A DNA stretch of 49,298 nucleotides from Escherichia phage BrunoManser, in sequence record MZ501053; one strand, 5' to 3'. Every line of letters starts with the position of its first letter. Position 1 is the first letter of the stretch. Made by a program: the position numbers and the translations under genes. Positions 1 to 49,298 of the stretch are shown here, one piece after another. The notes beneath the pieces are model-generated. The model was not told the DNA's origin. It worked only from the letters and a program-made list of their open reading frames with translations, and did not search any database.

Positions 1-540
1 ATGTTAAACAGCGAGGACGAATCTATGAAACAGGAAAAAGCGCCCGTCGTTCAGGGTGGCAACTTTAAAGAGCTATACCGGAAAGAGTTCGGAACCGTGT
101 TAGGCAAAACGCGACAGACCACGCCGAAGCAGTTGTTTGATCTGGCGGTTAAGTATTTCGAATGGGCGGAAGACAACGCAATCAAAGCGGCTGAGACTGC
201 CAGTTTTCAGGGCGATGTAGAAGAGTCGTTAGTGCATAAGCCGCGAGTGTTTACCGTTACCGGGTTTAAGCTTTTCTGCAGCCTGAGCGACGGCACTATC
301 GCGCGATACCGATCCGAACCGGACTATGCCGAAGTTATGGAATTCGTCGATTCCGTTATCAATGAACAGAAATTCCAGCTTGCGGCAAACGGCATCATTA
401 ACGCTTCGTTTATCGGCAAGGACTTAGGCATCGACAAGCCAGCGTCGATTAACATCGACAACACGTCGAGCGCGGCGGCTGTTGCCACCACAGAAGACGC
501 GATGAAGGACGCGGTAAACAGCGTTCTTGATATGCTCTAA
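1..540 (+). CDS. putative terminase small subunit
   Basis: 179-aa ORF directly upstream of the large terminase gene; positional call, no diagnostic motif. ORF starts at window base 1, so its RBS/upstream region is not visible. Confidence 0.4.
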   Translation: MLNSEDESMKQEKAPVVQGGNFKELYRKEFGTVLGKTRQTTPKQLFDLAVKYFEWAEDNAIKAAETASFQGDVEESLVHKPRVFTVTGFKLFCSLSDGTIARYRSEPDYAEVMEFVDSVINEQKFQLAANGIINASFIGKDLGIDKPASINIDNTSSAAAVATTEDAMKDAVNSVLDML

Positions 541-581
541 CAGTTAACCGGGCGGCTAGTCCGCCCTATAGGATCACGATA

Positions 582-2153
582 ATGTTAATTTGGGAAGAAC
601 TGGACGCAACACAAAAGCTTGCGATCAAGAAAATGTCGGAAGCCAGCTTCGAAAAGATGATTCGGATCTGGTTCCAGTTGATACAGGCACAGAAATTTTT
701 ACCTAACTGGCATCACCTTTACTTGTGCCACGAAGTCGAAGAGATTATCGCCGGGCGACGCGGTAACACGATCTTTAACGTGACTCCGGGTTCGGGGAAA
801 ACGGAAGTCTTTTCGATCCACTTGCCAGTTTATGCAATGCTGAAGCTGAAGAAGGTCAGAAACTTGAACGTGTCATTCGCCGACAGCCTTGTAAAGCGTA
901 ACAGTAAGCGCGTCCGCGAAATCATTTCTTCGCCGGAATTCCAAGAGCTATGGCCTTGCGCGTTCGGCACGTCGAAAGATGAAGAAATGCAGGTGCTAAA
1001 CAATGCGGGAAAGGTCTGGTTTGAGCTTATTTCAGCGGCGGCGGGCGGTCGCATTACTGGTTCGCGTGGCGGCTATATGGTTCCGGGCTTTTCAGGTATG
1101 GTAATGCTGGATGATATCGACAAGCCGGACGATATGTTTTCGAAGGTCAAACGAGAGCGTACACATACGCTTTTAAAGAACACAATCCGAAGCCGACGAA
1201 TGCACAACGAAACTCCGATTATCGCCATACAACAGCGCTTACACGCGCAGGATTCTACGTGGTTCATGATGAACGGCGGCATGGGGATAGACTTCGATCA
1301 GATTTCAATCCCGGCGCTAGTAACTGAGGAATACGGGAAATCACTTCCTGAATGGTTGCAACCGCACTTCGAAAAGGATGTGCTTTCGTCTGAATACGTG
1401 CTAATCGACGGAGTGAAGCATTATAGCTTTTGGCCTGAGAAAGAAACCGTTCACGACTTAATGGCGCTACGCGAGGCTGACCAATACACCTTTGATTCAC
1501 AGTATCAGCAGCGCCCGATCGCGCTAGGTGGTGCAGTGTTTAATTCCGAATGGTGGACGTACTACGGCAACAGTTTAGAAGCCGACGAACCAGATCCGGG
1601 TAAATTCGACTACCGCTTCATTACCGCCGATACCGCGCAGAAAACAGGCGAGCTAAACGACTACACTGTCTTCTGTTTGTGGGGTAAGAAAAACGATAAG
1701 GTGTATTTCATCGACGGCGTTCGCGGCAAGTGGAAAGCTCCGGAAATGGAAACGCAGTTTAAAGCGTTCGTTAACGCGGCGTGGAGGCATAATAAATCAA
1801 TGGGGGTACTGAGAAAGATTTACGTCGAAGATAAGGCAAGCGGTACGGGCTTGATCCAGAACTTAGAGAAGAAAACGCCTGTTGCTATCACGCCGTTGCA
1901 GCGTAACAAAGATAAAGTTACTCGCGCGATGGATGCGCAGCCAGTAATCAAAGCTGGGCGTGTGGTGCTACCGGAAGAACACCCTATGCTGTCCGAAATA
2001 ATCGCCGAGCATAGCGCGTTCACATACGACGATACGCACCCGCACGACGATATTGTCGATAACTTCATGGACGCGGCGAACATCGAACTTCTGACAATCG
2101 ACGATCCTGTCGAGCGAATGAAGCGTTTAGCCGGAATGGTAAAGCGTAAATAA
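582..2153 (+). CDS. terminase large subunit
   Basis: 523 aa; N-terminal P-loop-like VTPGSGKTE, acidic MLDDIDKPDD Walker-B-like segment, C-terminal nuclease-like region; precedes the portal gene. Confidence 0.8.
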   Translation: MLIWEELDATQKLAIKKMSEASFEKMIRIWFQLIQAQKFLPNWHHLYLCHEVEEIIAGRRGNTIFNVTPGSGKTEVFSIHLPVYAMLKLKKVRNLNVSFADSLVKRNSKRVREIISSPEFQELWPCAFGTSKDEEMQVLNNAGKVWFELISAAAGGRITGSRGGYMVPGFSGMVMLDDIDKPDDMFSKVKRERTHTLLKNTIRSRRMHNETPIIAIQQRLHAQDSTWFMMNGGMGIDFDQISIPALVTEEYGKSLPEWLQPHFEKDVLSSEYVLIDGVKHYSFWPEKETVHDLMALREADQYTFDSQYQQRPIALGGAVFNSEWWTYYGNSLEADEPDPGKFDYRFITADTAQKTGELNDYTVFCLWGKKNDKVYFIDGVRGKWKAPEMETQFKAFVNAAWRHNKSMGVLRKIYVEDKASGTGLIQNLEKKTPVAITPLQRNKDKVTRAMDAQPVIKAGRVVLPEEHPMLSEIIAEHSAFTYDDTHPHDDIVDNFMDAANIELLTIDDPVERMKRLAGMVKRK

Positions 2154-2166
2154 AGCGGGTATAATT

Positions 2167-2193
2167 AAGGCTGGAATTTTCCAGCCTTTTTTA
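2167..2193 (+). terminator. intrinsic terminator after terminase large subunit
   Basis: GGCTGGAATTTTCCAGCC hairpin followed by TTTTTT. Confidence 0.6.
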
Positions 2194-2209
2194 TTGGAGG
2201 AAAGACAGA

Positions 2210-3526
2210 ATGAAAATTGTAAAGCACGATGGGTATAACGAGATTTTCAACAACGGAGGCGACAACGCGCCGAAGCCGTTTTACGTCACCGGGGAGCAGT
2301 CTTACGGGTTGGGGTGGATGTACGAAAACAACGGGCTAGCGCGACGCATTATCGACGTTGTTCCAGAAGAAATGGTATCGCCCGGCTTTAAAGTATCAGG
2401 CGTGAAGGATGAAGCGGCGTTCCGGTCAGTGTGGGATGATCTGGAAATCGAAGGGCTAATCGTTGACGCGTTAGCGTGGCGTCGTCTGTATGGCGGTTCC
2501 GGTATCGTGGCGATTATCAACGACGGGCGCAAGCTTACTTCGCCAGCGAAAGAAGGAGGCGTACTGGAAGGGATCAGGGTTTACGATCGCGATCAGATTG
2601 CTATCGCGAAGAAGGAAACAAACGCGCGGAACGTCCGTTACGGCGAACCTGTCCTTTACGAAATTAGTCCGGGCGATGGTCTTACGCCGTATCAGGTTCA
2701 CTACACGCGAATCAAGATCCTAGACGGTGAACGACTCCCGCCACAACAGCGCAAGCGTAATAACGGATGGGGAGCACCATTCCTTAATAAGTCACTGATT
2801 GAAGCGATTTACGATTACGAATATTGCGAAGAACTAGCAACGCAACTTCTACGTCGTAAGCAACAGGCAGTATGGAAGGTAAAAGGGCTGGCGGAAATGT
2901 GCGACGACGACGACGCAGCTTACGCGGCGCGTTTGCGATTGGCACAGGTGGATGATAATTCCGGCGTAGGTAAGGCGATCGGCATTGACGCGAACGACGA
3001 AGAATACGAAGTGTTGAATTCTGACGTTAACGGCGTTTCTGAATTCCTGCAAAATAAGTTCGATCGTATTGTGTCGCTGTCCGGCATTCATGAAATCATC
3101 TTGAAAAACAAGAACGTCGGCGGAGTTAGTGCAAGCCAGAACACGGCGCTAGAAACGTTTTACAAGCTGATTGACCGACAGCGCGAAGAACATTACCGCC
3201 CGATCTTAGAATTCCTTTTGCCGTTCGTAATCCACGAAACGGAATGGTCTGTCGAGTTCGAGCCGCTTTCCATGCCTTCAGAGAAGGAAGCGTCCGAGAC
3301 TACGAAGAATCACGTTGAGTCTATCCGTGGCGCACTGGAAGATCAGATGATTGATTTAGAAGAAGCCCGCGACACGTTGCAATCTATCGCGCCGATGTTT
3401 AAGCTTAAAGACCTGAATCACGCGGAACTGAAGAAGCGCACCGAAGAGCAACAGAAAGTTGAAAAGGAACCGGGAGTCGGCGAGGTAATCAACGAGAACG
3501 AGGAAAACGGAAACGATGAAGATTAA
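2210..3526 (+). CDS. portal protein
   Basis: 438 aa, directly after terminase, strong RBS (GGAGGAAAG), acidic C-terminal tail; size and position typical of siphovirus portal. Confidence 0.6.
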   Translation: MKIVKHDGYNEIFNNGGDNAPKPFYVTGEQSYGLGWMYENNGLARRIIDVVPEEMVSPGFKVSGVKDEAAFRSVWDDLEIEGLIVDALAWRRLYGGSGIVAIINDGRKLTSPAKEGGVLEGIRVYDRDQIAIAKKETNARNVRYGEPVLYEISPGDGLTPYQVHYTRIKILDGERLPPQQRKRNNGWGAPFLNKSLIEAIYDYEYCEELATQLLRRKQQAVWKVKGLAEMCDDDDAAYAARLRLAQVDDNSGVGKAIGIDANDEEYEVLNSDVNGVSEFLQNKFDRIVSLSGIHEIILKNKNVGGVSASQNTALETFYKLIDRQREEHYRPILEFLLPFVIHETEWSVEFEPLSMPSEKEASETTKNHVESIRGALEDQMIDLEEARDTLQSIAPMFKLKDLNHAELKKRTEEQQKVEKEPGVGEVINENEENGNDED

Positions 3527-10530: not shown

Positions 10531-10543
10531 TTTTCTGTAGAAT
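10515..10543 (+). promoter_or_regulatory. sigma70-like promoter (TTGCTT-N17-TGTAGAAT, extended -10) overlapping terminator
   Basis: -35 sits in the 3' arm of the terminator hairpin; extended -10 TGTAGAAT. Confidence 0.45.
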
Positions 10544-10572
10544 CATCGTATCAAATCGGCTCGACGCTGTTT

Positions 10573-10587
10573 TAGCAATTCGTGCTA
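10573..10587. promoter_or_regulatory. palindrome TAGCA-N5-TGCTA
   Basis: TTTTAGCAATTCGTGCTA between promoter -10 (10538) and RBS of tail chaperone gene, i.e. in the transcribed leader. Confidence 0.55.
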
Positions 10588-10609
10588 TTACCTATCAGGA
10601 GAATCAACA

Positions 10610-10924: not shown

Positions 10925-10941
10925 AGCGGGCGGTTTATCTG

Positions 10942-11241: not shown

Positions 11242-11265
11242 GCGCCTTCGGGCGCTTTTCTTTTA
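11241..11265 (+). terminator. intrinsic terminator before tape measure gene
   Basis: GCGCC-TTCG-GGCGC followed by TTTTCTTTT. Confidence 0.55.
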
Positions 11266-11282
11266 TCTGGAGGTAATCACAT

Positions 11283-14345: not shown

Positions 14346-14359
14346 CACGATCTGACAAT

Positions 14360-14385
14360 AGCCCGCCTTGCGCGGGCTTTTTTAT
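14360..14385 (+). terminator. intrinsic terminator
   Basis: AGCCCGC-CTTG-CGCGGGCT followed by TTTTTT. Confidence 0.65.
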
Positions 14386-14396
14386 GGCTGTAGAAT
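14368..14396 (+). promoter_or_regulatory. sigma70-like promoter (TTGCGC-N17-TGTAGAAT) overlapping terminator
   Basis: Same architecture as the 10515 and 16510 promoters. Confidence 0.45.
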
Positions 14397-14426
14397 GGTT
14401 GCACATTCACAAGCGGAGTAAATAAA

Positions 14427-16497: not shown

Positions 16498-16501
16498 AAT
16501 T

Positions 16502-16527
16502 AGCCCGCCTTGCGCGGGTTTTTTTTC
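16502..16527 (+). terminator. intrinsic terminator
   Basis: AGCCCGC-CTTG-CGCGGG followed by T8; near-identical to the 14360 hairpin. Confidence 0.65.
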
Positions 16528-16538
16528 GCCTGTATAAT
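16510..16538 (+). promoter_or_regulatory. sigma70-like promoter (TTGCGC-N17-TGTATAAT) overlapping terminator
   Basis: Extended -10 TGTATAAT 17 nt after TTGCGC inside terminator stem; upstream of J-like gene. Confidence 0.5.
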
Positions 16539-16574
16539 GACTTCACCGATAAATAGCACAAAAGGTTAAACATC

Positions 16575-19500
16575 ATGATTAAAAAAGTGATAACCGGATC
16601 GAAAGGTGGTGGCGGAAAGCCTCATACACCTGTCGAAATGGAAGATAACTTGATTTCAATCAACAAAATACGCGTGTTGCTGGCAGTGTCAGACGGCGAA
16701 GTCGATCCAGACTTTGACATGAAAATGTTGTTGCTTAACGACGTTCCAGTTATGAACGACGACGGCACATACAACTACGAAGGCATTACGGCGGAATTCC
16801 GTCCCGGTACGCAAACGCAAGATTACATACAGGGATTCACCGACAGCGCAAGCGAAGTAACGATGAATCGCGTTATCGATCGCGATACCCCGTACAGCAT
16901 CAACGTTACGAACAAATCGCTTTCGGCTATCCGTATCAAAATGTATATGCCGCGTGGCGTGAAGGTGGAAAGCAACGGCGACAAGAACGGCGTTCGCGTC
17001 GAATACAAAGTCGAATTAGCTGTCGATGGTGCGGCGTTTACCGAATACTTCACCGACGTAATCGACGGTAAAACAATGTCGGGCTATGACCGCAGCCGCC
17101 GAATCAACCTTCCGGCGTTCAACAGTCAAGTAATCGTGAGAGTGTCGCGCGTTACTCCTGATTCCGACGATTCTAACTTGATCGACGAAATGCAGTTGAA
17201 AAGCTATGCGGAAGTAATCGACGCTAAATTCCGTTACCCGCTGACTGGTCTGTTATTCGTGGAATTCGATTCGAAGATGTTCCCGACCCAGATCCCGAAT
17301 ATTTCGCTTCGTAAAAAGTGGAAGGTGATTAACGTCCCGTCGAACTATAACCCGATTACCCGCGACTATAACGGAAGCTGGGACGGCACGTTCAAAAAGG
17401 CGTGGAGTAATAACCCGGCATGGGTTCTTTACGATATCATCACGAACCAACGTTACGGGTTAGATCAGCGTGAGTTAGGGATTAATGTCGATAAGTGGGC
17501 GTTATACGAAGCCGGGCAATATTGCGATCAGATGGTTCCAGACGGAAAAGGCGGAACCGAACCGCGTTACCTTTGTGATGTGGTTATTCAGTCGCAGATT
17601 GAAGCGTTTAAACTGGTTCGCGATATCTGTTCAATCTTCCGTGGTATGTCGTTTTGGAATGGCGAAAGTTTATCTGTCGTGATCGATAAGCCGCGCGACC
17701 CGTCTTACATTTTCACCAACGAAAACGTAGTCGGCGGTAACTTCTCTTACTCGTTCGCGAGCGAAAAGAGCATGTACACGACTTGCAACGTGCAGTTTGA
17801 TGATCATGAAAACTTATATCAACAGGACGTTGAACCTGTATTCGATACTGACGCGGCGCGACGCTTCGGCAATAACCCGACAAGCATTACAGCGATCGGA
17901 TGTACGCGACGCAGCGAGGCTAACAGGCGCGGACGCTGGATTCTGCGAACGAACCTTCGCAGCACGACGGTTAACTTTGCTACCGGGCTGGAAGGTATGA
18001 TCCCGCAAATCGGCGACGTCGTGGCGATTGCAGATAATTTCTGGTCAAGCAATCTTACGTTAAACCTTTCCGGGCGAGTCATGGAAGTATCAGGATTGCA
18101 GATTTTTACGGCGTTTCGTGTTGACGCTCGCGCAGGTGATTTTATTGTCGTAAATAAGCCGGATGGGAAGCCCGTCAAGCGCACAATTTCTTCGGTGTCA
18201 CCAGACGGCAAGACAATAGAAATAAACGTAGGATTCGGCTTTGACGTCGCACCAAGCACTATCTTTGCTATCGACCGAACCGACGTTGCTTTGCAACAGT
18301 ACGTTGTAACCGATATCAAGAAAGGCGACGGCGACGAAGAGTTCGTATTCAGTATCACGGCGGTTGAGTATGACCCGAACAAATACGACGCAATCGACTA
18401 CGGCGTAAACGTTGACGACAGGCCGACAAGTATCGTAGATCCTGACAAGTTGCCAGCGCCGCAAAACGTAGCTGTCGAATCGTTTTCGCGTATCGTGCAG
18501 GGCTTGAGCGTCGAAACGATGGTCATTAGCTGGGAGAAGGTCGATTATGCGGCATTCTATGAGGTTCAATGGAGAAAGAATAACGGTAACTGGATTAACG
18601 TTCCGCGCACCCAAACGAACGAAACATTCGTCGAAGGGATTTACGCGGGCGAATACTCCGTCCGAGTTCGCGCTATTTCATCTTCGGAAAACGCTTCCGT
18701 ATGGTCTGAGGTGGTAACGGTCGGATTAACTGGCAAGGTAGGCGAACCGGGCGCACCGATTAACTTCACTGCGTCCGACGACGTTGTTTTCGGTATCCGG
18801 TTAAAATGGGGTATGCCTGAAGACTCCGGCGACACGGCTTACATTGAAGTGCAGCAATCGCCAAACAACAGCGTAGAAAATGCATCGTTGCTAACGTTAG
18901 TCCCGTATCCGCAACATGAGTATTTCCATACTCCGCTTGAGGCCGGGAAGATGATTTTCTATAGAATTCGCGCCATCGACAAAATCGGCAACGTGTCTCC
19001 TTGGACTGACTTAATACCCGGAATGGCGTCTACCGACGTGGAAAGTATCATCGGTGAAATTAAGGTTGATATCGAAAATTCAGAGGGATATCAATGGCTG
19101 AAGGAAAACGCAACGGACGCAATAGCGAGAATCCAGAACACGGCAGAATCGGCGATAGAGAATGCGTTAGCCAATGATAAGGACATAAGAATCCAGCGAG
19201 TGAAGAACGGCAAATTCACGGCGCAGATTAAAGAGTCGTTACAGCTTATCGCCAACGAAACCGAAGCGCGTGTGACGCAAGTTTCACAGATGGAAGCGGA
19301 CTTCGACGGCAAGATTAACGCTCAAAATACTGAGCTTCGACAGGTTATCGCAACGGAAACGGAAGCGCTATCCGAAGAGATCGAAGAACTGAAAGCCTCA
19401 ATCGGTGACGATATTCAGGCGCAGTTAACGCAGGTTCAACAGGCGATCGCCAACGAAACGGAAGCGAGAACCACGGCGGACACGGCGTTAAGCGCAAGAA

Positions 19501-19997
19501 TCGGAAACAACGAAGCGGCATTGAATCAGAAGCTTGATTCGTGGGCTAACGTTGATTCTGTTGGTGCGATGTATGGCGTTAAGCTTGGATTGACATATAA
19601 CGGACAGCAGTATAGCGCGGGTATGGCTATGTCTCTGATTGCTTCCGGTAACGATGTTAAGTCACAACTTCTGTTTGAGGCCGACAGATTCGCGATCTAC
19701 AATGGTGCTAATAATCATATTAGATACCCATTTATCGTTGAGGGCGGGCAGGTAATACTAAGTAGCGCGGTGATTAAGGATGGATTCATCACTAATGCCA
19801 TGATTGGTGGATACATTCAATCAAATAACTACGTGTGGAACCAATCTGGTTGGCACTTAGGGAAGGACGGAACGTTCCTTAACTTCGGTTCAACTCCGGG
19901 CGAAGGTTCGATGAAACAGGATAACCAGACGATCAGCGTTAGAGATCAGAACGGTGTTCTTCGCGTCCAGATTGGTAGAATTACTGGCGTATGGTAA
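16575..19997 (+). CDS. central tail fibre / host specificity protein (lambda J-like)
   Basis: 1140 aa, last large gene of the tail tip module; C-terminal ~150 codons look AT-richer than the rest by eye. Confidence 0.8.
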   Translation: MIKKVITGSKGGGGKPHTPVEMEDNLISINKIRVLLAVSDGEVDPDFDMKMLLLNDVPVMNDDGTYNYEGITAEFRPGTQTQDYIQGFTDSASEVTMNRVIDRDTPYSINVTNKSLSAIRIKMYMPRGVKVESNGDKNGVRVEYKVELAVDGAAFTEYFTDVIDGKTMSGYDRSRRINLPAFNSQVIVRVSRVTPDSDDSNLIDEMQLKSYAEVIDAKFRYPLTGLLFVEFDSKMFPTQIPNISLRKKWKVINVPSNYNPITRDYNGSWDGTFKKAWSNNPAWVLYDIITNQRYGLDQRELGINVDKWALYEAGQYCDQMVPDGKGGTEPRYLCDVVIQSQIEAFKLVRDICSIFRGMSFWNGESLSVVIDKPRDPSYIFTNENVVGGNFSYSFASEKSMYTTCNVQFDDHENLYQQDVEPVFDTDAARRFGNNPTSITAIGCTRRSEANRRGRWILRTNLRSTTVNFATGLEGMIPQIGDVVAIADNFWSSNLTLNLSGRVMEVSGLQIFTAFRVDARAGDFIVVNKPDGKPVKRTISSVSPDGKTIEINVGFGFDVAPSTIFAIDRTDVALQQYVVTDIKKGDGDEEFVFSITAVEYDPNKYDAIDYGVNVDDRPTSIVDPDKLPAPQNVAVESFSRIVQGLSVETMVISWEKVDYAAFYEVQWRKNNGNWINVPRTQTNETFVEGIYAGEYSVRVRAISSSENASVWSEVVTVGLTGKVGEPGAPINFTASDDVVFGIRLKWGMPEDSGDTAYIEVQQSPNNSVENASLLTLVPYPQHEYFHTPLEAGKMIFYRIRAIDKIGNVSPWTDLIPGMASTDVESIIGEIKVDIENSEGYQWLKENATDAIARIQNTAESAIENALANDKDIRIQRVKNGKFTAQIKESLQLIANETEARVTQVSQMEADFDGKINAQNTELRQVIATETEALSEEIEELKASIGDDIQAQLTQVQQAIANETEARTTADTALSARIGNNEAALNQKLDSWANVDSVGAMYGVKLGLTYNGQQYSAGMAMSLIASGNDVKSQLLFEADRFAIYNGANNHIRYPFIVEGGQVILSSAVIKDGFITNAMIGGYIQSNNYVWNQSGWHLGKDGTFLNFGSTPGEGSMKQDNQTISVRDQNGVLRVQIGRITGVW

Positions 19998-24137: not shown

Positions 24138-25922
24138 TTACTTCAGCAATAGCGATTCAAGCTTCGCTAATCTTTCTTCGAGTTCATCGACTCGACCTTC
24201 TGCTTTGTCTGCTCGTTCCTTCTGTTCGTTGAATGCGTTAACCAACAATGCAGTAACGCCAGCATAGTTCACGCCTTTCATACCTTCCTTTTTAGCATCA
24301 GGCGTCTTTCCATTATCTTCAAGCTGGACAACAGCTTCTGGCAAAACAAATTCAAGATCCTGAGCAATTAATCCAGCCTCAACGCTGTATAACGATCTGT
24401 CAGTTTCATGCAATTCATTACGTTTATAGTACGTATATCCGACAAGCCTTTCCACGCGCTCACTTGCTGACTCGATTTTTTTGAGATTTGTTTTCATCCT
24501 CAAGTCGGATGTACTTGTCCAGTTTGCCGCCATAGCCACTCCGTCATCAGTAAACCTGAATAAAGCACTCCTAACATAAAGGTGTGTCTCACACATGCCG
24601 GAGTCATATCTAGTACAATCTACGCCAGTTACCCAATCAGCGCCCAACTGCACAGCCTTGAAAATGTTGACGGCGGAGTCAGACCCGGGAAGCTCCACAA
24701 TAACGCCAGCCGCCCTATCACGCCACGCAGCAAAATAACCCCCCTCAACCTCCCCAGCAACAAATGCCCCGTTTCCAGTTGTTCTGCGTACATCAACCCT
24801 CAATGCTTCTTTTTCTTCCGAAGATAGGCTTCTGATTCGTCCGCTAGCGTTAATTTCGTTAACGTTATTCAAGTCTCCTCTTTCATTAATTTGTAGATAG
24901 TTTGTTCCACCACCCTCTCTGGCTGTCTGAATTGTTGTTTTTGCAACCCCATTCTGCATTTCATGATAAATCCTTGAATACGAAACTTTAGATCCATCTG
25001 GATTATTATTTCGTAAAGCAATAATCCCTGAAGTTGTGCCATTCTTAGCCTCAAACTCAATACCACCAAATACTGGAACTTGATTTGCAGATAAACCCAA
25101 ATTGCTACGAGCGGCGTTAACGTCGGTTAGCCCTGATAGGTTCCCATCCTTGCGTAACAGCGCATCCGGGTTAACACTATTTGCGAACTGTTCCGCCTGA
25201 TTCCTGAATGCTTGCGACTGATCGCGGGCAGTTTCAGATCCAGACTGTGCCGTTTGCGCCGCGTTTCTGGCGTTTTCTGCTTGCGTAACCATGCCGCCAA
25301 TATCCGACTTCGCATTGTTGACGTCGATAACAGCCTGATCGCGAGTCTTGTTTACAGTATTAACCGCGTTCGTTTGTGCTGTACCAACTTCGGACAGCGC
25401 GTTATCTTTAATCTGTTGCGTCTGGTTCTTGAATCCTTCCGCCTCATTGCGATAGAAAAGCGATTCGTTCGCATATGTCCCGGCCTGAGTCTTCGACGCT
25501 TCCGCTTGTCCTTTGAACGTTTCCGCGTCATTCCTGAATGTCTGCGTTTCGTTGCGAAGGGTAATTATCTGTTGCAGGTCGAAATCTTTAAAGAATTCGA
25601 TCGCCTCTTCGATAACCGTTTCTTTGCTCTGATAGTATCGAAGCGTTTCCGCAACGTCTTGCGCCATGCCGTCAACGGTTAACGAGTCATTCAACAGGAT
25701 CACATATTTGGATTGCGCCACCGCTTCGCCGTCCGTAGTAATGGCGGTCATTTCCGTATCGCTATCGATCGTGTTGATTACCGCCAGCTTCAATGGTGTA
25801 GTAAGGAAAACTATAGTTGCGCCTTTGCGGATCAGGGATAACGGTTCGCGCCATTGAGTACCGACGCCCGTTACTTGTCCTTCCGCCGTCATTGACGCTT
25901 CGCCTTGTCTGTATAAAGCCAT
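24138..25922 (-). CDS. tail fibre protein with C-terminal intramolecular chaperone (peptidase S74-like) domain
   Basis: Start set to internal ATG after RBS GGAGG (MALYRQG...); Q/N/A-rich fibre repeats; C-terminal ~120 aa ([23 protein letters not shown]...) resembles endosialidase-chaperone autoprocessing domain ending in a coiled coil. Confidence 0.65.
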
Positions 25923-25942
25923 TTGTAAATCCTCCAAGTAAA

Positions 25943-25957
25943 TAGCACTATTTGCTA
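25943..25957. promoter_or_regulatory. palindrome TAGCA-N5-TGCTA
   Basis: AATAGCACTATTTGCTAAA immediately upstream of RBS of the - strand tail fibre gene. Confidence 0.5.
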
Positions 25958-26002
25958 AACCATGATTTTAGCATTGTGTTATGCGGGCGGCAATAGGGCA
26001 AT

Positions 26003-26024
26003 AAAAAACCCGCCGAAGCGGGTT
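26003..26024 (-). terminator. intrinsic terminator after primase gene (- strand)
   Basis: Reverse complement reads AACCCGC-TTCG-GCGGGTTTTTT. Confidence 0.6.
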
Positions 26025-26967
26025 AGAGTAAATCACTTGCATTAAATATTTTTCGTTGCATTCCAGATCGGAAGCCGCCTTCGTTCGGAATGATAACTTT
26101 CAATTCCCTGTCGTCCGCCATGTAAAGCGTATCACGATCTCCCGGCGTACATGCGACGCGCATTTCCCGTTCTCCTTTGTAGCGATAGGCTACCATTTCC
26201 AGATTTTCAGGAGTAAAGCACGTCCAGACTTCTTGACCTGTTGCAAGGTGTACATGTTGCGAGTCGATCCAGTTTAGGCAAAGGTAAATCGCCTTGTCGG
26301 TTGAACCACTCACGACAACGGAGGCGGCTGTATATTTCTTCGCGTAAAACGATTCGCGCCCTTCTTCGTCGATAAACAGGATATTGCAAAATTCATCGTC
26401 TAATCCATCTTCATGCACCATGCGACACGGCAACGCATGAATAAGCGATTCCCCACCATTCTCCAGCGTTTTTACGCCCACATCGTAAGATTCATCGCCC
26501 GGAAGATAAATCCCCTCAAACATCGACAGCGGCGTCGTGTCGCGCTTCTCTGTTCGCTCCATTACTGCGACGCATTGTTCATGCTCCGCCATTGCAACGC
26601 CGACATTGTGAACCGGAGTTCGGCGGGCTTTTTTGTTGGCCTTAATAACGTATTCTTGCGGAACCTTACCCAAAAACCGCCCTAAGATGTTAATCACTTC
26701 GCTGTATTCGCACCCGGTAAGCTTCATCATCCAGCCAATCCCGGTATCGTTGCCGCAAGAGTTACAGATCGCGCCACCGTCGCCAGCTTCCTTTAATTTA
26801 TCCGTCCATCTGAAGCGGTCTTTGCCGCCGCAATTCGGGCAAGATTGATGCTTTTTGTTGAACACGTCATTAGGTAGATTGCAGATCGATTGTAACGCCT
26901 CCCGCCACATTCCTTTCATGTACGGCAAAACGTCTTCTTTCTGGTACATCATGTTATCTTCGTGCAT
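26023..26967 (-). CDS. DNA primase (zinc-binding)
   Basis: 314 aa; CPNCGG...CNSCGN zinc-finger pair near N-terminus; adjacent to helicase; intrinsic terminator downstream on - strand. Confidence 0.5.
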   Translation of the reverse strand: MHEDNMMYQKEDVLPYMKGMWREALQSICNLPNDVFNKKHQSCPNCGGKDRFRWTDKLKEAGDGGAICNSCGNDTGIGWMMKLTGCEYSEVINILGRFLGKVPQEYVIKANKKARRTPVHNVGVAMAEHEQCVAVMERTEKRDTTPLSMFEGIYLPGDESYDVGVKTLENGGESLIHALPCRMVHEDGLDDEFCNILFIDEEGRESFYAKKYTAASVVVSGSTDKAIYLCLNWIDSQHVHLATGQEVWTCFTPENLEMVAYRYKGEREMRVACTPGDRDTLYMADDRELKVIIPNEGGFRSGMQRKIFNASDLL

Positions 26968-27026
26968 CTTCTTTGCTCCAATAAAAAACGCGTAACGAGA
27001 TTCTAACCCGCTACGCGTTCATTGTT

Positions 27027-27473
27027 TTAGCTATTTGTGCTTTGCGTCGTTTCGTCTTTTCGAACAACGCGCATTAACTTGCGATTCTTGCAACGCTTTT
27101 CTAAGCACTTGCCGTTACTGTCGAACTTCAGGTCGAAGCGAAGCCAGCTTGCGCGATAACCTTTACAGCCTTGCCGACGGTATGCACGATGCGCCGCCTC
27201 CGCGCCTTGCCATGAAATCATACCGCGAACTTTCCATTCGTTCACGTTCTGATTGGTCACTTTCAGCGCCTTAGCTGTTGCGGACGGCGAACCGTAATAT
27301 TCGATCAATGCGTCAAGTCTGGCTCGTAGTCCGGCGCGAACTTCATCCTTCAGGATGTAGAATCCGCATCGCTGGCGGGGCTTGATATCTTTCCCGCGTC
27401 GTGTACCATTATTCCCGTTGATGTGGCGACGGTCGATTTCACCAGTTGATTCTGCAATACGTTTCATCGTCAT
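27027..27473 (-). CDS. putative HTH DNA-binding protein (Cro/YdaS-like)
   Basis: Start set to internal ATG with RBS GAGG (MTMKRIAE...); helix-turn-helix-like segment GSPSATAKALKVTNQNVNEWK; Arg/Lys-rich. Confidence 0.4.
   Translation of the reverse strand: MTMKRIAESTGEIDRRHINGNNGTRRGKDIKPRQRCGFYILKDEVRAGLRARLDALIEYYGSPSATAKALKVTNQNVNEWKVRGMISWQGAEAAHRAYRRQGCKGYRASWLRFDLKFDSNGKCLEKRCKNRKLMRVVRKDETTQSTNS
27028..27042. promoter_or_regulatory. degenerate palindrome + hairpin module upstream of primase (- strand)
   Basis: Minus-strand reading AGCACAAATAGCTAAAAC then AACGCGTA...GTTAGAAT...TACGCGTT hairpin then RBS GGAG. Confidence 0.45.
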
Positions 27474-27566
27474 AGTAAATTCCTCAATAGCATTTTTTGT
27501 TAAAACTGTTTCGTCAATGCGTGTATTATACAATCAACGAAGCATCTACGCAAAGGATTAAAATTC

Positions 27567-29618
27567 GTGAAAATTAGCAACGAAACACGACAGTATTTCA
27601 AAACTCAAAACATCAAAAAGCAGATCGAAATGCTTGGCGAAGAGTACATACGACGCACACAAGAACGTTTCACCGTAGGCGATATCAAGCCGTATGAATA
27701 TCAGGTTGCGGCATACTTCGAGATCGCAAAGCGCTTAGGTAAAGACTACGAACACCCGTTCTACGTGAAAGCGTCGGTATCGGCTGGCAAAACAATCATC
27801 TTCGCGATGGTTGCGAAACAGTGTCAAGCGATGGGTTTAAAAATGATGGTGCTTGCCCGGCAGGGTGAAATCGTCGATCAGGATAGCGAAGAGATCGATA
27901 ATTTCGGCGTTCCTAACTCTATCTTTTCCGCGTCGCTGGGTATCAAGTCTTGTCACTTCCCGATCGTAGTCGGTTCCGAAGGTACTGTCGGTAATGGCCT
28001 GTTTAACGAGCTGTCAGACTTCGTGCCGCACGTAATCGGGATTGATGAATGTCATCAGGTCGATTGGGAGGACGTAGCGAAAGCGATTGAGGGCGACGAA
28101 TCTTACGAACAAATGACGGCGGATAAAGGTCAAATCGTAATGAATGGCGATATTCCGCTGATCGGTAAAGACGGTTTACCTGTCACCGGGACGAAGCGTT
28201 CACAGTACACCGTAATCATTGTCGAAATGATGCGTCGTTGTCGTGAGGTTCACGGTCACGAATTGCGAGTATTCGGAATGACCGGATCGGAATATCGCGG
28301 AGTTGTTCCGATTCTTGTCGAAAATCCGAAGATGGTCGGATTCTGGCGTGAGCAGGTAACGAACATTGATACCAACTACCTGATCGAATTCGGTTCCGTT
28401 GTGCCGACAGTATTCGGATCTACTTCAGGCGTTCACTACAACTACGACAGCTTCACGGCATCCAGCGAAGACGGCGTAGCGGACTTCAGCGACAAAGACT
28501 TGAAAAAGATGGAAGCCGAAGCGCTGGCGAACAAGTCTTTAACCGAACAGATTATGCACATGGTCGCAAAGGAGGCGGAGAAGCGGAACGCGGTTCTAAT
28601 CACTTGCGCCGGGCAAAGGCATTGCAAAGAAGCCGCCGCAGCACTACCGCCCGGAAGCACTTACGCGATCATTACTGACAAGACGAACGCGAAACAGCGA
28701 CAAGCGATATTAGACGACGTTCGCGCCGGGAAGATTAAGTACACGTTTCAGGTTATGGCGCTTACTACTGGCGTAAACGTGCCGAATTGGGATTTTTCTG
28801 TAATCCTCCGCAAGATCGGTTCGCTTACCTTACTGATTCAGCTTTTAGGGCGCGGAATGCGACTACTGAAGAAGTGGCAGATTGAAGACGGAATGGTGAA
28901 GACAGACCATCTTGTTTGGGACTTCGCCGGGACTATGGACGAATTAGGGCAACTTTATTTCGATCCGATACTTGAGCAAGCGCAATACCAACGACGCTTT
29001 GAAACTGGTAAAGATCCGAAGAAATGTGAGCTATGCGGACACGAAAACAGCTTTTACGCCCGCCGTTGCGTTAACGTGATCGATGGAAAACGATGTGAGC
29101 ACTTCTGGACATATCAAACGTGCGAAGACCAGAAGGACGAAAAAACGGGCAAGATCCTTGTAAAAGGTTGTGGGGCGAAAAATGACGTTGTGGCGCGTGT
29201 CTGTCGTTGTTGTGACGTGTCGTTAGTAGATCCTAACCTGAAGTTATCCGGCAAGGCGTACACGAAAAATGATTGGTACGACGTTAAAAAGTTCGAAGTG
29301 CAGTTGACCAAAAACAGTAAAGGAATAATATTCCATTACGTGTTAGATAACGGCGAAGGTGAGTTCAACGCATACGAACGATTCTTCCCTGAATCCGAAG
29401 CGAAAGTGTGCGGTACGTTATGGAAAACTAAAGGCGTGTTGCCGCACGTATCAGATCCGAAGATGCGTAAATACTTCATCGGCATGAAGAACGCAATCAA
29501 GATCATGCAGTACGCGCACCACATCGCCGCCCCGGTTCGCGTGACGCACCGTAAGAACGCGAAGAAAGAAGACTTAATCAGCCGTAAAGATTTCGGCATG
29601 GAGGAAATACCAGAATGA
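27567..29618 (+). CDS. ATP-dependent helicase (SF2, DExH-type)
   Basis: 683 aa; Walker A ASVSAGKTIIF and DECH box (VIGIDECHQ); C-terminal Cys-rich region; likely non-ATG (GTG) start. Confidence 0.7.
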   Translation: MKISNETRQYFKTQNIKKQIEMLGEEYIRRTQERFTVGDIKPYEYQVAAYFEIAKRLGKDYEHPFYVKASVSAGKTIIFAMVAKQCQAMGLKMMVLARQGEIVDQDSEEIDNFGVPNSIFSASLGIKSCHFPIVVGSEGTVGNGLFNELSDFVPHVIGIDECHQVDWEDVAKAIEGDESYEQMTADKGQIVMNGDIPLIGKDGLPVTGTKRSQYTVIIVEMMRRCREVHGHELRVFGMTGSEYRGVVPILVENPKMVGFWREQVTNIDTNYLIEFGSVVPTVFGSTSGVHYNYDSFTASSEDGVADFSDKDLKKMEAEALANKSLTEQIMHMVAKEAEKRNAVLITCAGQRHCKEAAAALPPGSTYAIITDKTNAKQRQAILDDVRAGKIKYTFQVMALTTGVNVPNWDFSVILRKIGSLTLLIQLLGRGMRLLKKWQIEDGMVKTDHLVWDFAGTMDELGQLYFDPILEQAQYQRRFETGKDPKKCELCGHENSFYARRCVNVIDGKRCEHFWTYQTCEDQKDEKTGKILVKGCGAKNDVVARVCRCCDVSLVDPNLKLSGKAYTKNDWYDVKKFEVQLTKNSKGIIFHYVLDNGEGEFNAYERFFPESEAKVCGTLWKTKGVLPHVSDPKMRKYFIGMKNAIKIMQYAHHIAAPVRVTHRKNAKKEDLISRKDFGMEEIPE

Positions 29619-30040
29619 TTACCGACAAAGGCGACTATTTAGAATTCTACGAACGCGATCCAAGCGACACGCGGAAGGAGGTTAATCACCAGATCGAAAG
29701 CACATCGTTCGTTAAGGTTCGGCATCCTGAATTACTGTTCTGGCATAGCGTGAACGAGAACGAAAAAAGCAAGGTTACGGCGATGATAGATCAGCAATCG
29801 GGATTATTGAAAGGCGTTAGCGACTTCGTGTTCCTGATTGGTTTTAATCACCGCTACCCGTTCGGCGCTATCGAATTGAAGCGCGTCAATAAGTCGGGCA
29901 AAGGGAAGGCGTCACCAGTCAGCGACGAACAGAAATCTTTCTTGCGCAAGGTTCGCGAACGTGGAGGATTCGCCGCCGTTGCTTATGGCGTAGAGCAATT
30001 TAAATTAGCTGTCGCGGAAATGCTAAAACAGCACGAATAG
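29615..30040 (+). CDS. VRR-NUC domain nuclease
   Basis: 141 aa; PD-(D/E)XK-like core (GVSDFVFL...GAIELKR) typical of VRR-NUC proteins; overlaps helicase stop. Confidence 0.5.
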   Translation: MITDKGDYLEFYERDPSDTRKEVNHQIESTSFVKVRHPELLFWHSVNENEKSKVTAMIDQQSGLLKGVSDFVFLIGFNHRYPFGAIELKRVNKSGKGKASPVSDEQKSFLRKVRERGGFAAVAYGVEQFKLAVAEMLKQHE

Positions 30041-30043
30041 CTA
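30029..30043. promoter_or_regulatory. degenerate palindrome + hairpin module
   Basis: CAGCACGAATAGCTAAAAC, hairpin GCCGGAATGGAATCCGGTATTATC, leader CATCGAAACAACGGAGG. Confidence 0.45.
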
Positions 30044-30100
30044 AAACAGCCGGAATGGAATCCGGTATTATCTATTCATCGAAACAACGGAGGCGCATAA

Positions 30101-30334
30101 ATGAAAACTTTGGCAGAACTTAAGGCGATAGCTGTAGACCTTCAGGAAAGAATGAAGCCGTTAAATCATAAGCTTGAAAACTCCCAAATTACTCTTCGCT
30201 CAAGAATGTCCATAGAATCATCATTGCGCGAACTTAAAATATTCTGGTATGACGCAATGTGTGACGTTCACTCGCACCCAGAATACGAAGGTAACTTCAG
30301 ATTCGTAAAAGAAAATAACCCATACAGGAATTGA
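30101..30334 (+). CDS. hypothetical protein
   Basis: 77-aa ORF with RBS GGAGG downstream of a palindrome/hairpin module. Confidence 0.4.
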   Translation: MKTLAELKAIAVDLQERMKPLNHKLENSQITLRSRMSIESSLRELKIFWYDAMCDVHSHPEYEGNFRFVKENNPYRN

Positions 30335-30337
30335 AAA

Positions 30338-31051
30338 ATGAAAGACGAAAACGATAAAGTAACAATCGACACATTCGGTACAGGTTGCGAATTTGCCCGC
30401 GCCGGGTTAGTAACTGGCGGTCATTATCAGTATGTAAGGACGCGTCCCGAAGATATCGTATCCGGTCGCCGATACAAGGGAACCAATACGCCGGACGCGG
30501 TTCGCGATTTGTGGTCTACTCCGCGCGAAGTAGTGGCATATATGGAAGGCCGCTTCGGGAAATATGATCTTGACGCCGCCGCCAGTGAAGAAAATAAAGT
30601 GTGCGACAAGTTCTATTCGCAGGAAACAAACTGTTTAAAACGCTGGTGGGGTAAAAATAAACATGTTTGGCTTAACCCGCCATACAGCCGCCCGGATGTG
30701 TTCGTTAAGAAAGCGATCGAGCAAATGGAACACGGAAACCAGATTGATATGCTGTTACCTGCTGATAACTCGACGGCATGGTTTACCGAAGCGCGACGTA
30801 ACGCGGCGGAAATCATCTGGATCGAGGGCGATTTGTGGGAAGATATCGACGGAACGGAATTCGCCAGATCTGGACGATTGGCCTTCATTTCAGGAGCTAC
30901 CGGGAAGCAAGTAGACGGCAACAACAAAGGTTCTGTTCTGTTCGTCATTCGCCAGCTTAAAGAAGGCGAAACGCAACAAACGCATTACGTAAGCATCGCG
31001 GACATTTGTCCTTCAGTGAAAAATAAACGTGCAAAAGCGAGGAATATTTAA
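30338..31051 (+). CDS. dam: DNA N6-adenine methyltransferase (Dam-like)
   Basis: 237 aa; catalytic motif IV NPPY (WLNPPYSRPD); phage Dam-like size. Confidence 0.7.
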   Translation: MKDENDKVTIDTFGTGCEFARAGLVTGGHYQYVRTRPEDIVSGRRYKGTNTPDAVRDLWSTPREVVAYMEGRFGKYDLDAAASEENKVCDKFYSQETNCLKRWWGKNKHVWLNPPYSRPDVFVKKAIEQMEHGNQIDMLLPADNSTAWFTEARRNAAEIIWIEGDLWEDIDGTEFARSGRLAFISGATGKQVDGNNKGSVLFVIRQLKEGETQQTHYVSIADICPSVKNKRAKARNI

Positions 31052-40432: not shown

Positions 40433-40489
40433 TGCTGTATCTCCTTCGTTTCGATGAAGCAACTATACCCGAACCACCCCGCCGATGTG

Positions 40490-40504
40490 TTGCAAAAAGT
40501 GCTA
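40490..40504. promoter_or_regulatory. palindrome module (leftward orientation), first gene of leftward operon
   Basis: Minus-strand TAGCACTTTTTGCAA + CGGGTATAGTTGCTTCATCGAAACGAAGGAG before ATG at 40432. Confidence 0.5.
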
Positions 40505-40585
40505 TTCCTGATCCGATACGATTATTCCTCGCTTTTGGAATAACTGGAATAATGAGTGATTACTCATGATTGCAAATGACAAGTT

Positions 40586-40629
40586 ATGATTATTGCTTGA
40601 TTGTTCGCAATCGTGATGATTATTGCTTG
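40586..40629 (+). repeat. direct repeat ATGATTATTGCTTG x2
   Basis: Two exact 14-bp copies (40586-40599 and 40616-40629), 30 bp apart, in the leader of the leftward operon. Confidence 0.5.
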
Positions 40630-40685
40630 TGAAGCATTAAATTGGAGAGAGGTTATAGAGTGAAACGGTCTTCGCCACCAACTTT

Positions 40686-40700
40686 TAGCAATTCGTGCTA
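40686..40700. promoter_or_regulatory. palindrome TAGCA-ATTCG-TGCTA in divergent control region
   Basis: Perfect copy ACTTTTAGCAATTCGTGCTA with no adjacent long ORF. Confidence 0.45.
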
Positions 40701-40767
40701 CGTGTCTAAATTACGCTTGTAATCTTTGTCTAAAATTTGCTAGATTTGTCACTTAGACAAAATGATG

Positions 40768-40860
40768 AAAATTTGAGCAATCCTAAGAGCTGGCCGATTT
40801 AGCGCTAACTATATGATATATATAATAATAATAAGTTTTAAATTAGCTTTTATATAGTAG
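40768..40860 (+). repeat. AT-rich direct repeat, copy B
   Basis: AAAATTTGAGCAA...GCGCTAACT...ATATATATAATAATAATAAG...TTTTAAATTAGCTTTTATAT; same orientation as copy A, 19.3 kb away. Confidence 0.55.
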
Positions 40861-41053
40861 AAATACTGTTGTATATAGGGCGTGTCACTAATGTATAAGG
40901 TGTAAGGGTGAGATTCGGTATATTGAGGATTTCTGGTTATATATACAGTACATTAGGAGGCAGACCCATAAATATCTCTATAGGTGCTTACATCTAATAC
41001 ATCTTATACAGGGGCGATTACGTAGTTGTGACGCGCGTCCTTGCTGGATTGTG

Positions 41054-41082
41054 TTGTCTAAGGTAAAAATTTAAGATATTAT
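41054..41082 (+). promoter_or_regulatory. candidate sigma70 early promoter (TTGTCT-N17-TATTAT)
   Basis: In the divergent control region ~65 bp upstream of ATG at 41146. Confidence 0.4.
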
Positions 41083-41145
41083 TACGCGCTTATACAACGT
41101 GTAATCTTTGTCTAAGCTTGTCTAAAACAATCAGGAGAATCAACC

Positions 41146-47625: not shown

Positions 47626-47996
47626 TTCAGATTAACCTTTCAGAGAAGCAAGCCCGCGAATTCTGCGACTTCTGTTTTTCGGTAACTGGCGTACTTGATA
47701 CGCCTATCGCCCGCGAAGTGTTCAAGATCGTAGAGCGTCAATTGCTACCGCATTCAAGCGAACAGGCCGCTTTAGCCGTGTGGCGTTCGGAACGTGTTTT
47801 ACCGAACCTGATCGAAGCGTGGCGACGCAAGAATGAAACGGCGGAAAAGTCATTCGGTCAAGCTGAAATGTTCCGCGATATCATGCCAGCCGAGGCGATG
47901 AAGTATTCGGTTAATGCTGGCGGCGCACTTTATAACGAGATCGTCGGCAAACGCGGAAAGGTTGTATCGGTTAACGGTCGTTCCGGTCGCTTTTAG
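47622..47996 (+). CDS. hypothetical protein
   Basis: 124 aa, overlaps upstream stop. Confidence 0.5.
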   Translation: MIQINLSEKQAREFCDFCFSVTGVLDTPIAREVFKIVERQLLPHSSEQAALAVWRSERVLPNLIEAWRRKNETAEKSFGQAEMFRDIMPAEAMKYSVNAGGALYNEIVGKRGKVVSVNGRSGRF

Positions 47997-48008
47997 CACG
48001 AATTGCTA
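47994..48008. promoter_or_regulatory. palindrome TAGCA-CGAAT-TGCTA + hairpin module
   Basis: Starts at TAG stop; GCGGGGTTGCGATATAGTGACCC then AATCAAAACAAACGGAG. Confidence 0.6.
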
Positions 48009-48067
48009 AACCATTAACGCGGGGTTGCGATATAGTGACCCAATCAAAACAAACGGAGTAAGTAAGA

Positions 48068-48301
48068 ATGTTCGGACTAACTGAAGCGCACTTGAATATT
48101 GTTAAGCGTCGTTGCCGGGAAATGTCTTCCGAGTTGAAAGCGGCTATCGAAGGCGGCGCGAAATACGATCACGTCGCAAAGCGCATAATCGACGAGCACC
48201 ACAAGAAGGACGGAGTTCACACCCTTGTGACGCGACAACAATTCATATGGTTAGCCGGGTATTTTAACGGGCGTTTTGGAAACAAATTTGACTACGAATA
48301 G
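48068..48301 (+). CDS. hypothetical protein
   Basis: 77 aa; module and RBS ACGGAG upstream. Confidence 0.45.
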   Translation: MFGLTEAHLNIVKRRCREMSSELKAAIEGGAKYDHVAKRIIDEHHKKDGVHTLVTRQQFIWLAGYFNGRFGNKFDYE

Positions 48302-48312
48302 GAGATCTAACA

Positions 48313-48516
48313 ATGTCACGCTTCCCGAAGAAAAACGATCAATTACGTTGTATTACGTCACGAAATTGCGACACCTTTTCTCATGGTTGTTTGTACGACG
48401 TGGAGAAGGTAAGCAAGGCTAAACGTCTGGTCTATGTGTACGGCGACGATGGAGACATTCACGAAATCGACTTCCCTCAGGATATAACGAAAGGTCATTT
48501 TGAAATTAACGATTGA
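48313..48516 (+). CDS. hypothetical protein
   Basis: 67 aa; RBS AGGAG. Confidence 0.45.
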   Translation: MSRFPKKNDQLRCITSRNCDTFSHGCLYDVEKVSKAKRLVYVYGDDGDIHEIDFPQDITKGHFEIND

Positions 48517-48679
48517 TCTTCGTCCCTGAACGGTGATAACATTATTTCCGTAGACAAAAGAGGCGCATAGAGCGCAACGCGCATCGCGATAGATGCACTT
48601 TCGTAGTAAGTTCGGTTGGATTGTGGAACCAACGCCGTAGACCCGTACACGGCATCAATTCTAAAAGGAACCTACCTAA

Positions 48680-48841
48680 ATGAAACAAGATATCAAAATC
48701 GAAATCAAAGTCACCCGTAACGGCGAAGTAACCCGCTACAAAAAATCATTAAAACCGGGCGAAGCGGTTATCGGTCGAATCGGTGGCGTTATGCTGAAGG
48801 CGCAAGAAGATGAAGCGATTCACAGTAAATCTACTAATTAA
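48680..48841 (+). CDS. hypothetical small protein (53 aa)
   Basis: Manual ORF MKQDIKIEIKVTRNGEVTRY... after AAGGAA RBS. Confidence 0.3.
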   Translation: MKQDIKIEIKVTRNGEVTRYKKSLKPGEAVIGRIGGVMLKAQEDEAIHSKSTN

Positions 48842-48845
48842 GAAG

Positions 48846-48995
48846 ATGGGGCGACAGTGCAAAACCTGTCGTCAACATTACGAAGCAGAAATCGAAGCGG
48901 GTTCCACTGAAGAAGCTGTCGCAATTGCGAAAGACCAATCAGGCGCGAATCCAGCAACTCACAAATTCAACATTCTATTAGTTAAGGAGATTTAA
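48846..48995 (+). CDS. hypothetical small protein
   Basis: Start at internal ATG of tool ORF 48810-48995 (MGRQCKTCRQ...); CxxC pair. Confidence 0.3.
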   Translation: MGRQCKTCRQHYEAEIEAGSTEEAVAIAKDQSGANPATHKFNILLVKEI

Positions 48996-48997
48996 CA

Positions 48998-49228
48998 ATG
49001 GCTATCGTTCTTTACATTCTGTCGGCAATCGCGATTTTCGGTTTTGGTGCATTTTGTGCGTTCGTTGTTGTAGCCTTCGCGCTTCGCCACGATGCGGAAC
49101 ATAAGGACGGCGTTTGGTTGACCTACGATCGCAAGCGTGACGAATGGGATTGTTTCGGCGACCTGTCGGCGGTATACGCAAAAGCTTACAGTCACCCCAA
49201 GCCGATTAACTTCAAAGTTATCAAATAG
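48998..49228 (+). CDS. hypothetical membrane protein
   Basis: 76 aa; N-terminal hydrophobic region (IVLYILSAIAIFGFGAFCAFVVVAFAL); strong RBS AAGGAG; terminator downstream. Confidence 0.5.
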   Translation: MAIVLYILSAIAIFGFGAFCAFVVVAFALRHDAEHKDGVWLTYDRKRDEWDCFGDLSAVYAKAYSHPKPINFKVIK

Positions 49229-49245
49229 AAAATCAGGTTGAAAAC

Positions 49246-49270
49246 CAACCCGCTTCGGCGGGTTTTTTTG
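49246..49270 (+). terminator. intrinsic terminator at end of rightward early operon
   Basis: AACCCGC-TTCG-GCGGGTT followed by TTTTTT. Confidence 0.7.
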
Positions 49271-49289
49271 TGCCTGTAATATGCTAAAA

Positions 49290-49298
49290 TAGCACGAA
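49290..49298. promoter_or_regulatory. truncated palindrome half (TAGCACGAA) at window end
   Basis: Window ends inside the motif; the rest would lie upstream of base 1 if the molecule is circularly permuted. Confidence 0.4.

Follow-up and report, generated by a model that had tools for sequence, protein, structure and literature searches.

The record ends of Escherichia phage BrunoManser meet inside a known T1-type repeat before the small terminase gene, very probably as the opened circular map of a complete genome

Phages T1 and TLS package their DNA in the headful mode from a pac site, which leaves virion DNA that is terminally redundant and, to a limited extent, circularly permuted; for T1 this has been established experimentally. 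Read-based or restriction analyses of KanT1, SU57 and MSK agree with this, in that they report either an absence of fixed termini or a headful mode. P22-like phages have pac inside the gene for the small terminase subunit (terS), whereas the mapped end of T1-like phages lies kilobases upstream of terS. Headful packaging of the P22 and Sf6 type produces permuted, terminally redundant DNA, so that assemblies of these genomes close as circles. A repeat family is also on record for the T1-like group: the re-annotation of TLS described 21 copies of a 21-nt direct repeat, aaATAGCACnnnTTGnTAAAA, with similar repeats in T1, Rtp and Rogue1 (PMC11447400). Its authors proposed stoperator-like, enhancer-binding or UP-like roles for this element (PMC11447400).

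The DNA analysed here, hereafter the window, is the whole 49,298-bp record of Escherichia phage BrunoManser (MZ501053). Its closest database phages are Escherichia phage SRT8 (NC_042043) and Citrobacter phage IME-JL8 (MT023084), which have approximately 96-97% nucleotide identity to the window and are both classified in the database as Drexlerviridae, Tunavirinae, Sertoctavirus. Gene order is the same as in the window throughout both relatives. SRT8 is collinear with the whole window, with 46.7 of 49.3 kb inside megablast HSPs at 90-97% identity; all of its segments are present in the window in the same order, and the sole gaps are substituted segments of 3-1461 bp. The common gene order and a genome-wide similarity to the type phage SRT8 well over 70% (about 90% overall, a figure that is arithmetic from megablast HSPs only) place the window phage in Sertoctavirus. 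This estimate is probably below the 95% species line, and the two may well be distinct species within the genus. The segments substituted relative to SRT8 include window 24149-25575, which is the distal part of the tail-fibre ORF at 24138-25937, and, at 43.3-44.3 kb, several small early ORFs. No tRNAs were found in the window. In the assembly collection, exact-protein look-ups of the large terminase subunit (TerL), the long form of the small subunit (TerS) and the last ORF gave no match, and no second assembly of the phage was found there.

The two ends of the window are joined in both close relatives. The IME-JL8 counterpart of window 47800-49298 is 29203-30700 and that of window 1-2200 is 27002-29202, so that the ends abut at 29203/29202; in SRT8 the same segments map to 27441-28938 and 25240-27440 and abut at 27441/27440. 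A 200-nt query made from the joined ends matches at 192 of its 200 positions in each of the two phages and is free of indels at the join. With a 600-nt query over the join, every Tunavirinae record among the 60 matches listed gave a single unbroken alignment; these matches include more than 50 Tunavirinae records, in which the intact junction lies at coordinates from approximately 4.4 kb to approximately 48.4 kb, on both strands. An exact search of the IMG/VR viral contigs with the 50-nt junction sequence returned 0 matches. The records of SRT8 and IME-JL8 are opened elsewhere than the window and on the opposite strand. The ends of the SRT8 record fall at window 27401-27403, and those of the window are internal to SRT8; ends that are mutually internal are the pattern expected of different linearizations of one circular map. 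The window thus closes as a circle, and its record ends are arbitrary with respect to its relatives. These alignments show the window ends to be contiguous in the biological sequence and the genome to be complete. Completeness had been proposed from the letters of the window before any comparison, and the abutting ends in SRT8 and IME-JL8, the match of 192/200 at the join and the collinearity with SRT8 bear it out.

Two other accounts of the ends are difficult to reconcile with these data. One is that the window is an incomplete fragment, either a truncated contig or a piece of a prophage, that ends in a repeat by chance. We regard this as highly improbable: no supporting evidence was found, the length of 49,298 bp matches those of SRT8 (49,579 bp) and IME-JL8 (49,838 bp, circular), and all SRT8 segments are present in order, with ends that abut with zero missing bases. 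The other is that the genome has fixed physical termini at the record ends (cos, blunt or direct-terminal-repeat) and that the half repeat found there is coincidental. The string does simply end at these positions, and the SRT8 and T1 records are flagged as ‘linear’, but we give this account next to no credence. The cut coincides with an annotated start codon and divides a conserved motif that every relative among the matches listed carries in unbroken form, and the records of the relatives open at many different positions. The window contains no terminal repeat, its two ends have no overlap of at least 5 nt and they are not conserved as ends among relatives. Furthermore, cos was not found in SU57, and the terminase of the window is of the T1/headful type.

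Read through the join, the order would be the stop codon of the last early gene, a terminator, TAATAT, the repeat, the Shine–Dalgarno motif GAGGA and the ATG of terS at position 25. The features of this region, including the terminase genes that follow, are:

48998..49228, + strand: last ORF before the break, 76 aa; small protein, last gene of the rightward early block
49247..49271, + strand: intrinsic-terminator-like hairpin AACCCGCTTCGGCGGGTT (stem 49247-49264) with T-run, from a terminator scan
49277..49282, + strand: -10-like hexamer TAATAT with TG directly before it, read from the sequence
49287..49298, + strand: 5' part of the repeat, aaATAGCACGAA, matching the TLS consensus and cut by the record break
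1..9, + strand: 3' part of the repeat, ATGTTAAAC, including the in-frame ATG at which the record opens
13..17, + strand: Shine–Dalgarno motif GAGGA, 7 nt before ATG 25
25..540, + strand: small terminase subunit, probable coding sequence of 171 aa (longest ORF, 1..540)
582..2153, + strand: large terminase subunit of the T1 type (PHROG 38, E=1.4e-116; Pfam Terminase_6C)

The last ORF before the break belongs to PHROG 5976 (E=2.9e-25), with a weak DUF7299 match below the Pfam cutoff, and its counterpart by position in T1 is ORF55 (8084-8311), which directly precedes the terS terminator. The RNA fold of 49229-49275 has a free energy of -16.7 kcal/mol (z = -2.5), and the stem and T-run are invariant across 8/8 aligned phages and annotated as a terminator in T1. 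At the position of TAATAT the relatives have CAATAT, TAATAT or GAGTAT; the hexamer is a possible candidate for a weak promoter of the packaging/late operon. A simple sigma-70 scan of the + strand of the intact junction in IME-JL8 found no canonical -35/-10 pair, only the terminator, and in an Rfam scan over the intact junction all matches were driven by the terminator hairpin and stayed far below gathering scores. After TAATAT, the tail of the window reads aaaaTAGCACGAA up to the last base, and its head begins with ATGTTAAACAGCGAGGACGAATCTATG. The arrangement of terminator, yAATAT, TAAAATAGCAC(G/T)AAATGTTAAACA, GAGG and ATG is kept in 7/7 Tunavirinae compared, T1 included, with the stretch TAAAATAGCAC(G/T)AAATGTTAAACA identical in all seven of those aligned; the layout was seen in T1, JMPW1, UP30, EF3-1, IME347 and SRT8. 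The region upstream of terS in SRT8 and IME-JL8 is identical to that of the window, with the repeat intact. Before late genes, a terminator hairpin, a T-run and a TGTA(G/T/A)AAT-like element are combined three times (repeat family D10), at 14359-14404, at 16501-16573 and at 49245-49298 plus 1-9; a copy of the repeat follows in two of the three.

The break divides the junction copy of this 21-nt repeat, a member of the aaATAGCAC-N3-TTGnTAAAA family, into 12 + 9 nt. Once joined, the ends read aaATAGCACGAAATGTTAAAC and carry the conserved ATAGCAC and TAAA(A/C) ends of the TLS consensus. The junction copy is intergenic, lies on the + strand between ORF 48998-49228 and terS, and points in the direction in which terS is transcribed. 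Base 1 is the A of an ATG that opens ORF 1..540 and that equals the annotated terS start in both SRT8 and IME-JL8, and this first in-frame ATG of the small-terminase ORF is where the string would have been opened, after the genome had been assembled as a circle and then written as a linear string. The SA32RD record is opened at terS too, but at the second ATG. The break at base 1 looks like annotation convention, namely the common re-opening of circularly closing phage assemblies at the terminase gene. Because the first in-frame ATG belongs to the second arm of the repeat, the splitting of the repeat is a by-product of cutting there, rather than chance.

Most of what the sequence-only reading had said about the ends can be placed within this layout. 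It had taken the final nine bases for half of a palindrome, and 49290-49298, TAGCACGAA, are indeed the 5' half of the repeat. Its statement that a gene starts at base 1 is correct in that an ATG there opens ORF 1..540, but the probable start is ATG 25, and base 1 lies inside the repeat. Similarly, an upstream region is absent before base 1, as it had noted, but the terminator, TAATAT and the repeat stand at the end of the window. The remark that the record is opened just upstream of terS is literally right if ATG 25 is the true start. Its proposal of a circularly permuted, headful-packaged genome agrees with what homology to T1 predicts.

Comparison of homologues suggests that the true terS start is probably ATG 25 rather than base 1. 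GAGG or GGAGG is conserved at the same distance in all relatives aligned, the curated T1 annotation has the equivalent ribosome-binding site at 8384-8387, and the equivalent second ATG is the annotated terS start in T1, IME347, EF3-1, JMPW1, UP30 and SA32RD. Apart from the GAGG motif, the eight codons that separate the two ATGs show free variation across eight aligned phages. The match to PHROG 606 (E=1.1e-58) is aligned from residue 13 of the long ORF, and that to T1 TerS (76% identity) from residue 14. ATG 1 was considered as the terS start and rejected: it has no Shine–Dalgarno motif upstream, homologues align from residue 13-14 and most relatives use the second ATG. The annotated terS start is probably eight codons off in the window record and in the annotations of SRT8 and IME-JL8.

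The terminase proteins encoded after the break connect this phage to T1. Its TerL is 92% identical over 522 aa to that of the experimentally headful phage T1, and the portal protein, which is also encoded after the break, is 69% identical to the T1 portal. TerS matches Pfam PF16677 (GP3_package, the P22 gp3 family; E=2.5e-10, 40.9 bits versus a cutoff of 29.4), a family of pac-recognizing small terminases that the window phage has in common with P22/Sf6-type pac phages. On the basis of the homology of TerL and TerS to those of T1, the membership of TerS in the P22 gp3 family and the documented pac/headful packaging of T1-like phages, we strongly infer that the virion DNA is linear, terminally redundant and partially permuted, with pac-initiated headful packaging as in T1. 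In T1, the terminal redundancy is 2.8 kb and permutation is limited. The IME-JL8 paper reports no terminus or packaging analysis. Taken together, we hold it very probable that the window is a complete genome whose circular map was opened at the first in-frame terS ATG, with a junction that splits the repeat, and that packaging is, by homology, of the T1 type. The window would then be the complete non-redundant genome, 49,298 bp in length, of a virulent T1-like siphovirus (Drexlerviridae, Tunavirinae, Sertoctavirus).

Packaging of the T1 type need not begin where the record does. In the T1 record (NC_005833 / AY216660), a repeat_region is annotated from base 1 (1..2800) and terS is at 8396; T1 8371/8372 corresponds to window 49298/1, so that the join is internal in T1 too. 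From this annotation, and reportedly from Roberts et al. 2004, T1 base 1 is taken to be the left end of the 2.8-kb terminal repeat. The T1 record would thus begin 8.4 kb before terS, whereas the window is opened at terS.

An alternative is that pac is at or next to the record break, in terS or upstream of it as in P22, Sf6 and SPP1, and that the repeat before terS is perhaps the recognition signal. TerS does belong to the P22 gp3 family, and P22-like phages have pac inside terS; in addition, Tunavirinae strictly conserve the copy of the repeat in front of terS, whose layout is atypical. We nonetheless consider this location very improbable, given that terS is 8.4 kb into the T1 record from the presumed left end of the terminal repeat. 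Restriction analysis has located the pac site of TLS, in whose record terS is at 8792; for SU57, the authors consider the end likely to lie in the untranslated region that precedes the small early ORFs, as it does in T1. The repeat itself is a poor fit to a unique pac signal, as it occurs approximately 25-30 times per genome on both strands, and TLS, which has no repeat before terS, still packages by pac. The break position is no marker of pac or of the packaging start.

Homology to T1 instead points to a different region. A sequence made of the last 100 nt and the first bases of the T1 record has 70% identity to window 40492-40599, and in the base-level alignment T1 base 1 corresponds to window 40592, approximately 8.7 kb upstream of terS. 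The predicted feature is:

40586..40629, + strand: predicted pac-proximal end neighbourhood, from homology to T1 only

This segment is bounded by a 14-nt direct repeat, ATGATTATTGCTTG, at 40586-40599 and 40616-40629, with window 40592 inside the first copy, and it lies between two minus-strand copies of the 21-nt repeat family (40504 and 40700). The first packaging cut would be expected at approximately window 40.59 kb, in the divergent early intergenic region and not at the record ends; the position is approximate, because the T1 pac region is only about 70% identical and the estimate depends on how T1 base 1 was defined. The early regions of T1 have largely diverged from those of the window. 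The surrounding region, 40463-41145, is a divergent non-coding stretch of 683 bp between the leftward and rightward early blocks, with a TGTAATCTTTGTCTAA motif at 40718 and 41100 and an AT-rich stretch that contains several ATATA runs. As the homologue of the T1 record ends, it is likely to be a pac region, a regulatory hub or both.

The repeat that the break splits is already known from the description in TLS and has been noted in T1. Counted on both strands of the window, the 9-mer TAGCACGAA has 9 exact occurrences; for a random 9-mer in a total of 2 x 49.3 kb, our own arithmetic gives an expectation of approximately 0.4. The pattern TAGCAC-N5-G[CT]TAAA, which the repeat finder lists as families D1-D7, has 21 zero-mismatch copies on the circularized window, and 35 copies when up to two mismatches are allowed, where 100 shuffles gave 6.6 on average and 13 at most. 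The junction copy, which starts at 49290 with TAGCACGAA and continues across the break with ATGTTAAAC, has zero mismatches to this pattern; its second arm is the TGTTA variant, also found in the copies at 6761-, 35180-, 39815- and 42659+ (signs give the strand).

Most copies have a fixed geometry with respect to the genes that follow. Counted from the T of TAGCAC, a -10-like hexamer begins at exactly +37 in 18/28 window copies (background, 1.7% per position), in 19/29 copies in SRT8 and in 7/9 copies in T1 bases 1-12000; the T1 repeat family thus has the same +37 spacing as that of the window. Typical window copies are followed by an ATG with a Shine–Dalgarno motif at +72 to +77. From these distances we infer that the palindrome centre of typical copies lies approximately 30 bp upstream of the hexamer, or at approximately -42 if transcription starts 7 nt after the hexamer. 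The +37 geometry resembles that of activator-dependent class II (approximately -42) promoters, and there is no -35 hexamer at the canonical spacing. The TTGCTA of the repeat was considered as a -35 hexamer and rejected, as by our own count it is separated from the +37 hexamer by 22 bp, not 16-18.

The junction copy departs from this geometry: its ATG with a Shine–Dalgarno motif is at +33, and it has no -10-like hexamer at +37. It instead sits downstream of the terminator and of a -10-like element, 33 nt before ATG 25, whereas TLS repeats lie approximately 76 nt before start codons. In TLS, a member of the Tempevirinae, terS has no repeat in front of it, unlike in the Tunavirinae compared. The reversed layout of the junction copy recurs in a second copy, found at 16554 in front of the large tail gene (16575-19997); the spacer of this second copy, AAAAGG, doubles as a Shine–Dalgarno motif for the ATG at 16575.

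Many of the typical copies are accompanied by secondary structure. The 39 nt after the repeat form a stable hairpin (z < -2) in 16 of the 22 typical module copies, examples being those at 33241+, 42659+, 43248+, 44301+, 46886+, 47360+, 35180- and 39815-. The stems vary from copy to copy (GGGGTAA/TTACCCC, GGGCTT/AAGCCC, AAGCCCA/TGGGCTT and CCCGG/CCGGG), and the +37 hexamer falls within the loop or the 3' arm, or immediately beyond the hairpin on its 3' side. A hairpin after the repeat is not mentioned in the TLS paper (PMC11447400). These copy-specific hairpins could act in DNA, as a promoter feature, or in the RNA of read-through transcripts, as an element for processing or stability. At 41734, 43248, 46886, 47360 and 47994, the TAG of TAGCAC is the stop codon of the upstream ORF; these ORFs end at 41736, 43250, 46888, 47362 and 47996, respectively, and the repeat abuts or overlaps the end of the gene with no spacer.

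One tentative reading, drawn from geometry and conservation only and to our minds rather unlikely, is that the repeat is the operator of one dimeric regulator that times gene expression in T1-type phages. Such a regulator would bind at approximately -42, the class II activator position, in promoters that have no -35 hexamer and that carry copy-specific hairpins around the -10 element. Before terS and the tail gene at 16575-19997, it would cover the transcription start or the leader, and the packaging and tail operons would be held back or coupled to antitermination. The terS copy would then act, speculatively, as an operator-like or leader element and not as the usual upstream promoter element.

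One ORF of the window can be considered as a source of such a regulator. The minus-strand ORF at 27027-27475 (MTMKRIAES..., approximately 149 aa) has a weak match to a P22_Cro-like helix-turn-helix domain (E=3.9e-5, below the Pfam cutoff), and its product is a candidate binder of the repeat. The SRT8 record opens inside the Cro-like gene that matches this ORF; because the SRT8 ends fall there, the 77-aa SRT8 ‘gp1 transcriptional regulator’ looks like a truncated remnant.

The record ends of the window must not be taken for physical termini or for the pac site. Motif and gene scans should handle the window as circular, since a linear scan misses one copy of the repeat along with the entire regulatory region of terS. 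The break itself is ordinary bookkeeping; it matches prior knowledge of T1-like phages and adds no new biology. The regulatory logic of the repeat, with its reversed layout before terS and its copy-specific hairpins, is an only mildly interesting residue. For the packaging of this phage, the position at approximately 40.59 kb provides a testable prediction of where the real packaging start may be.
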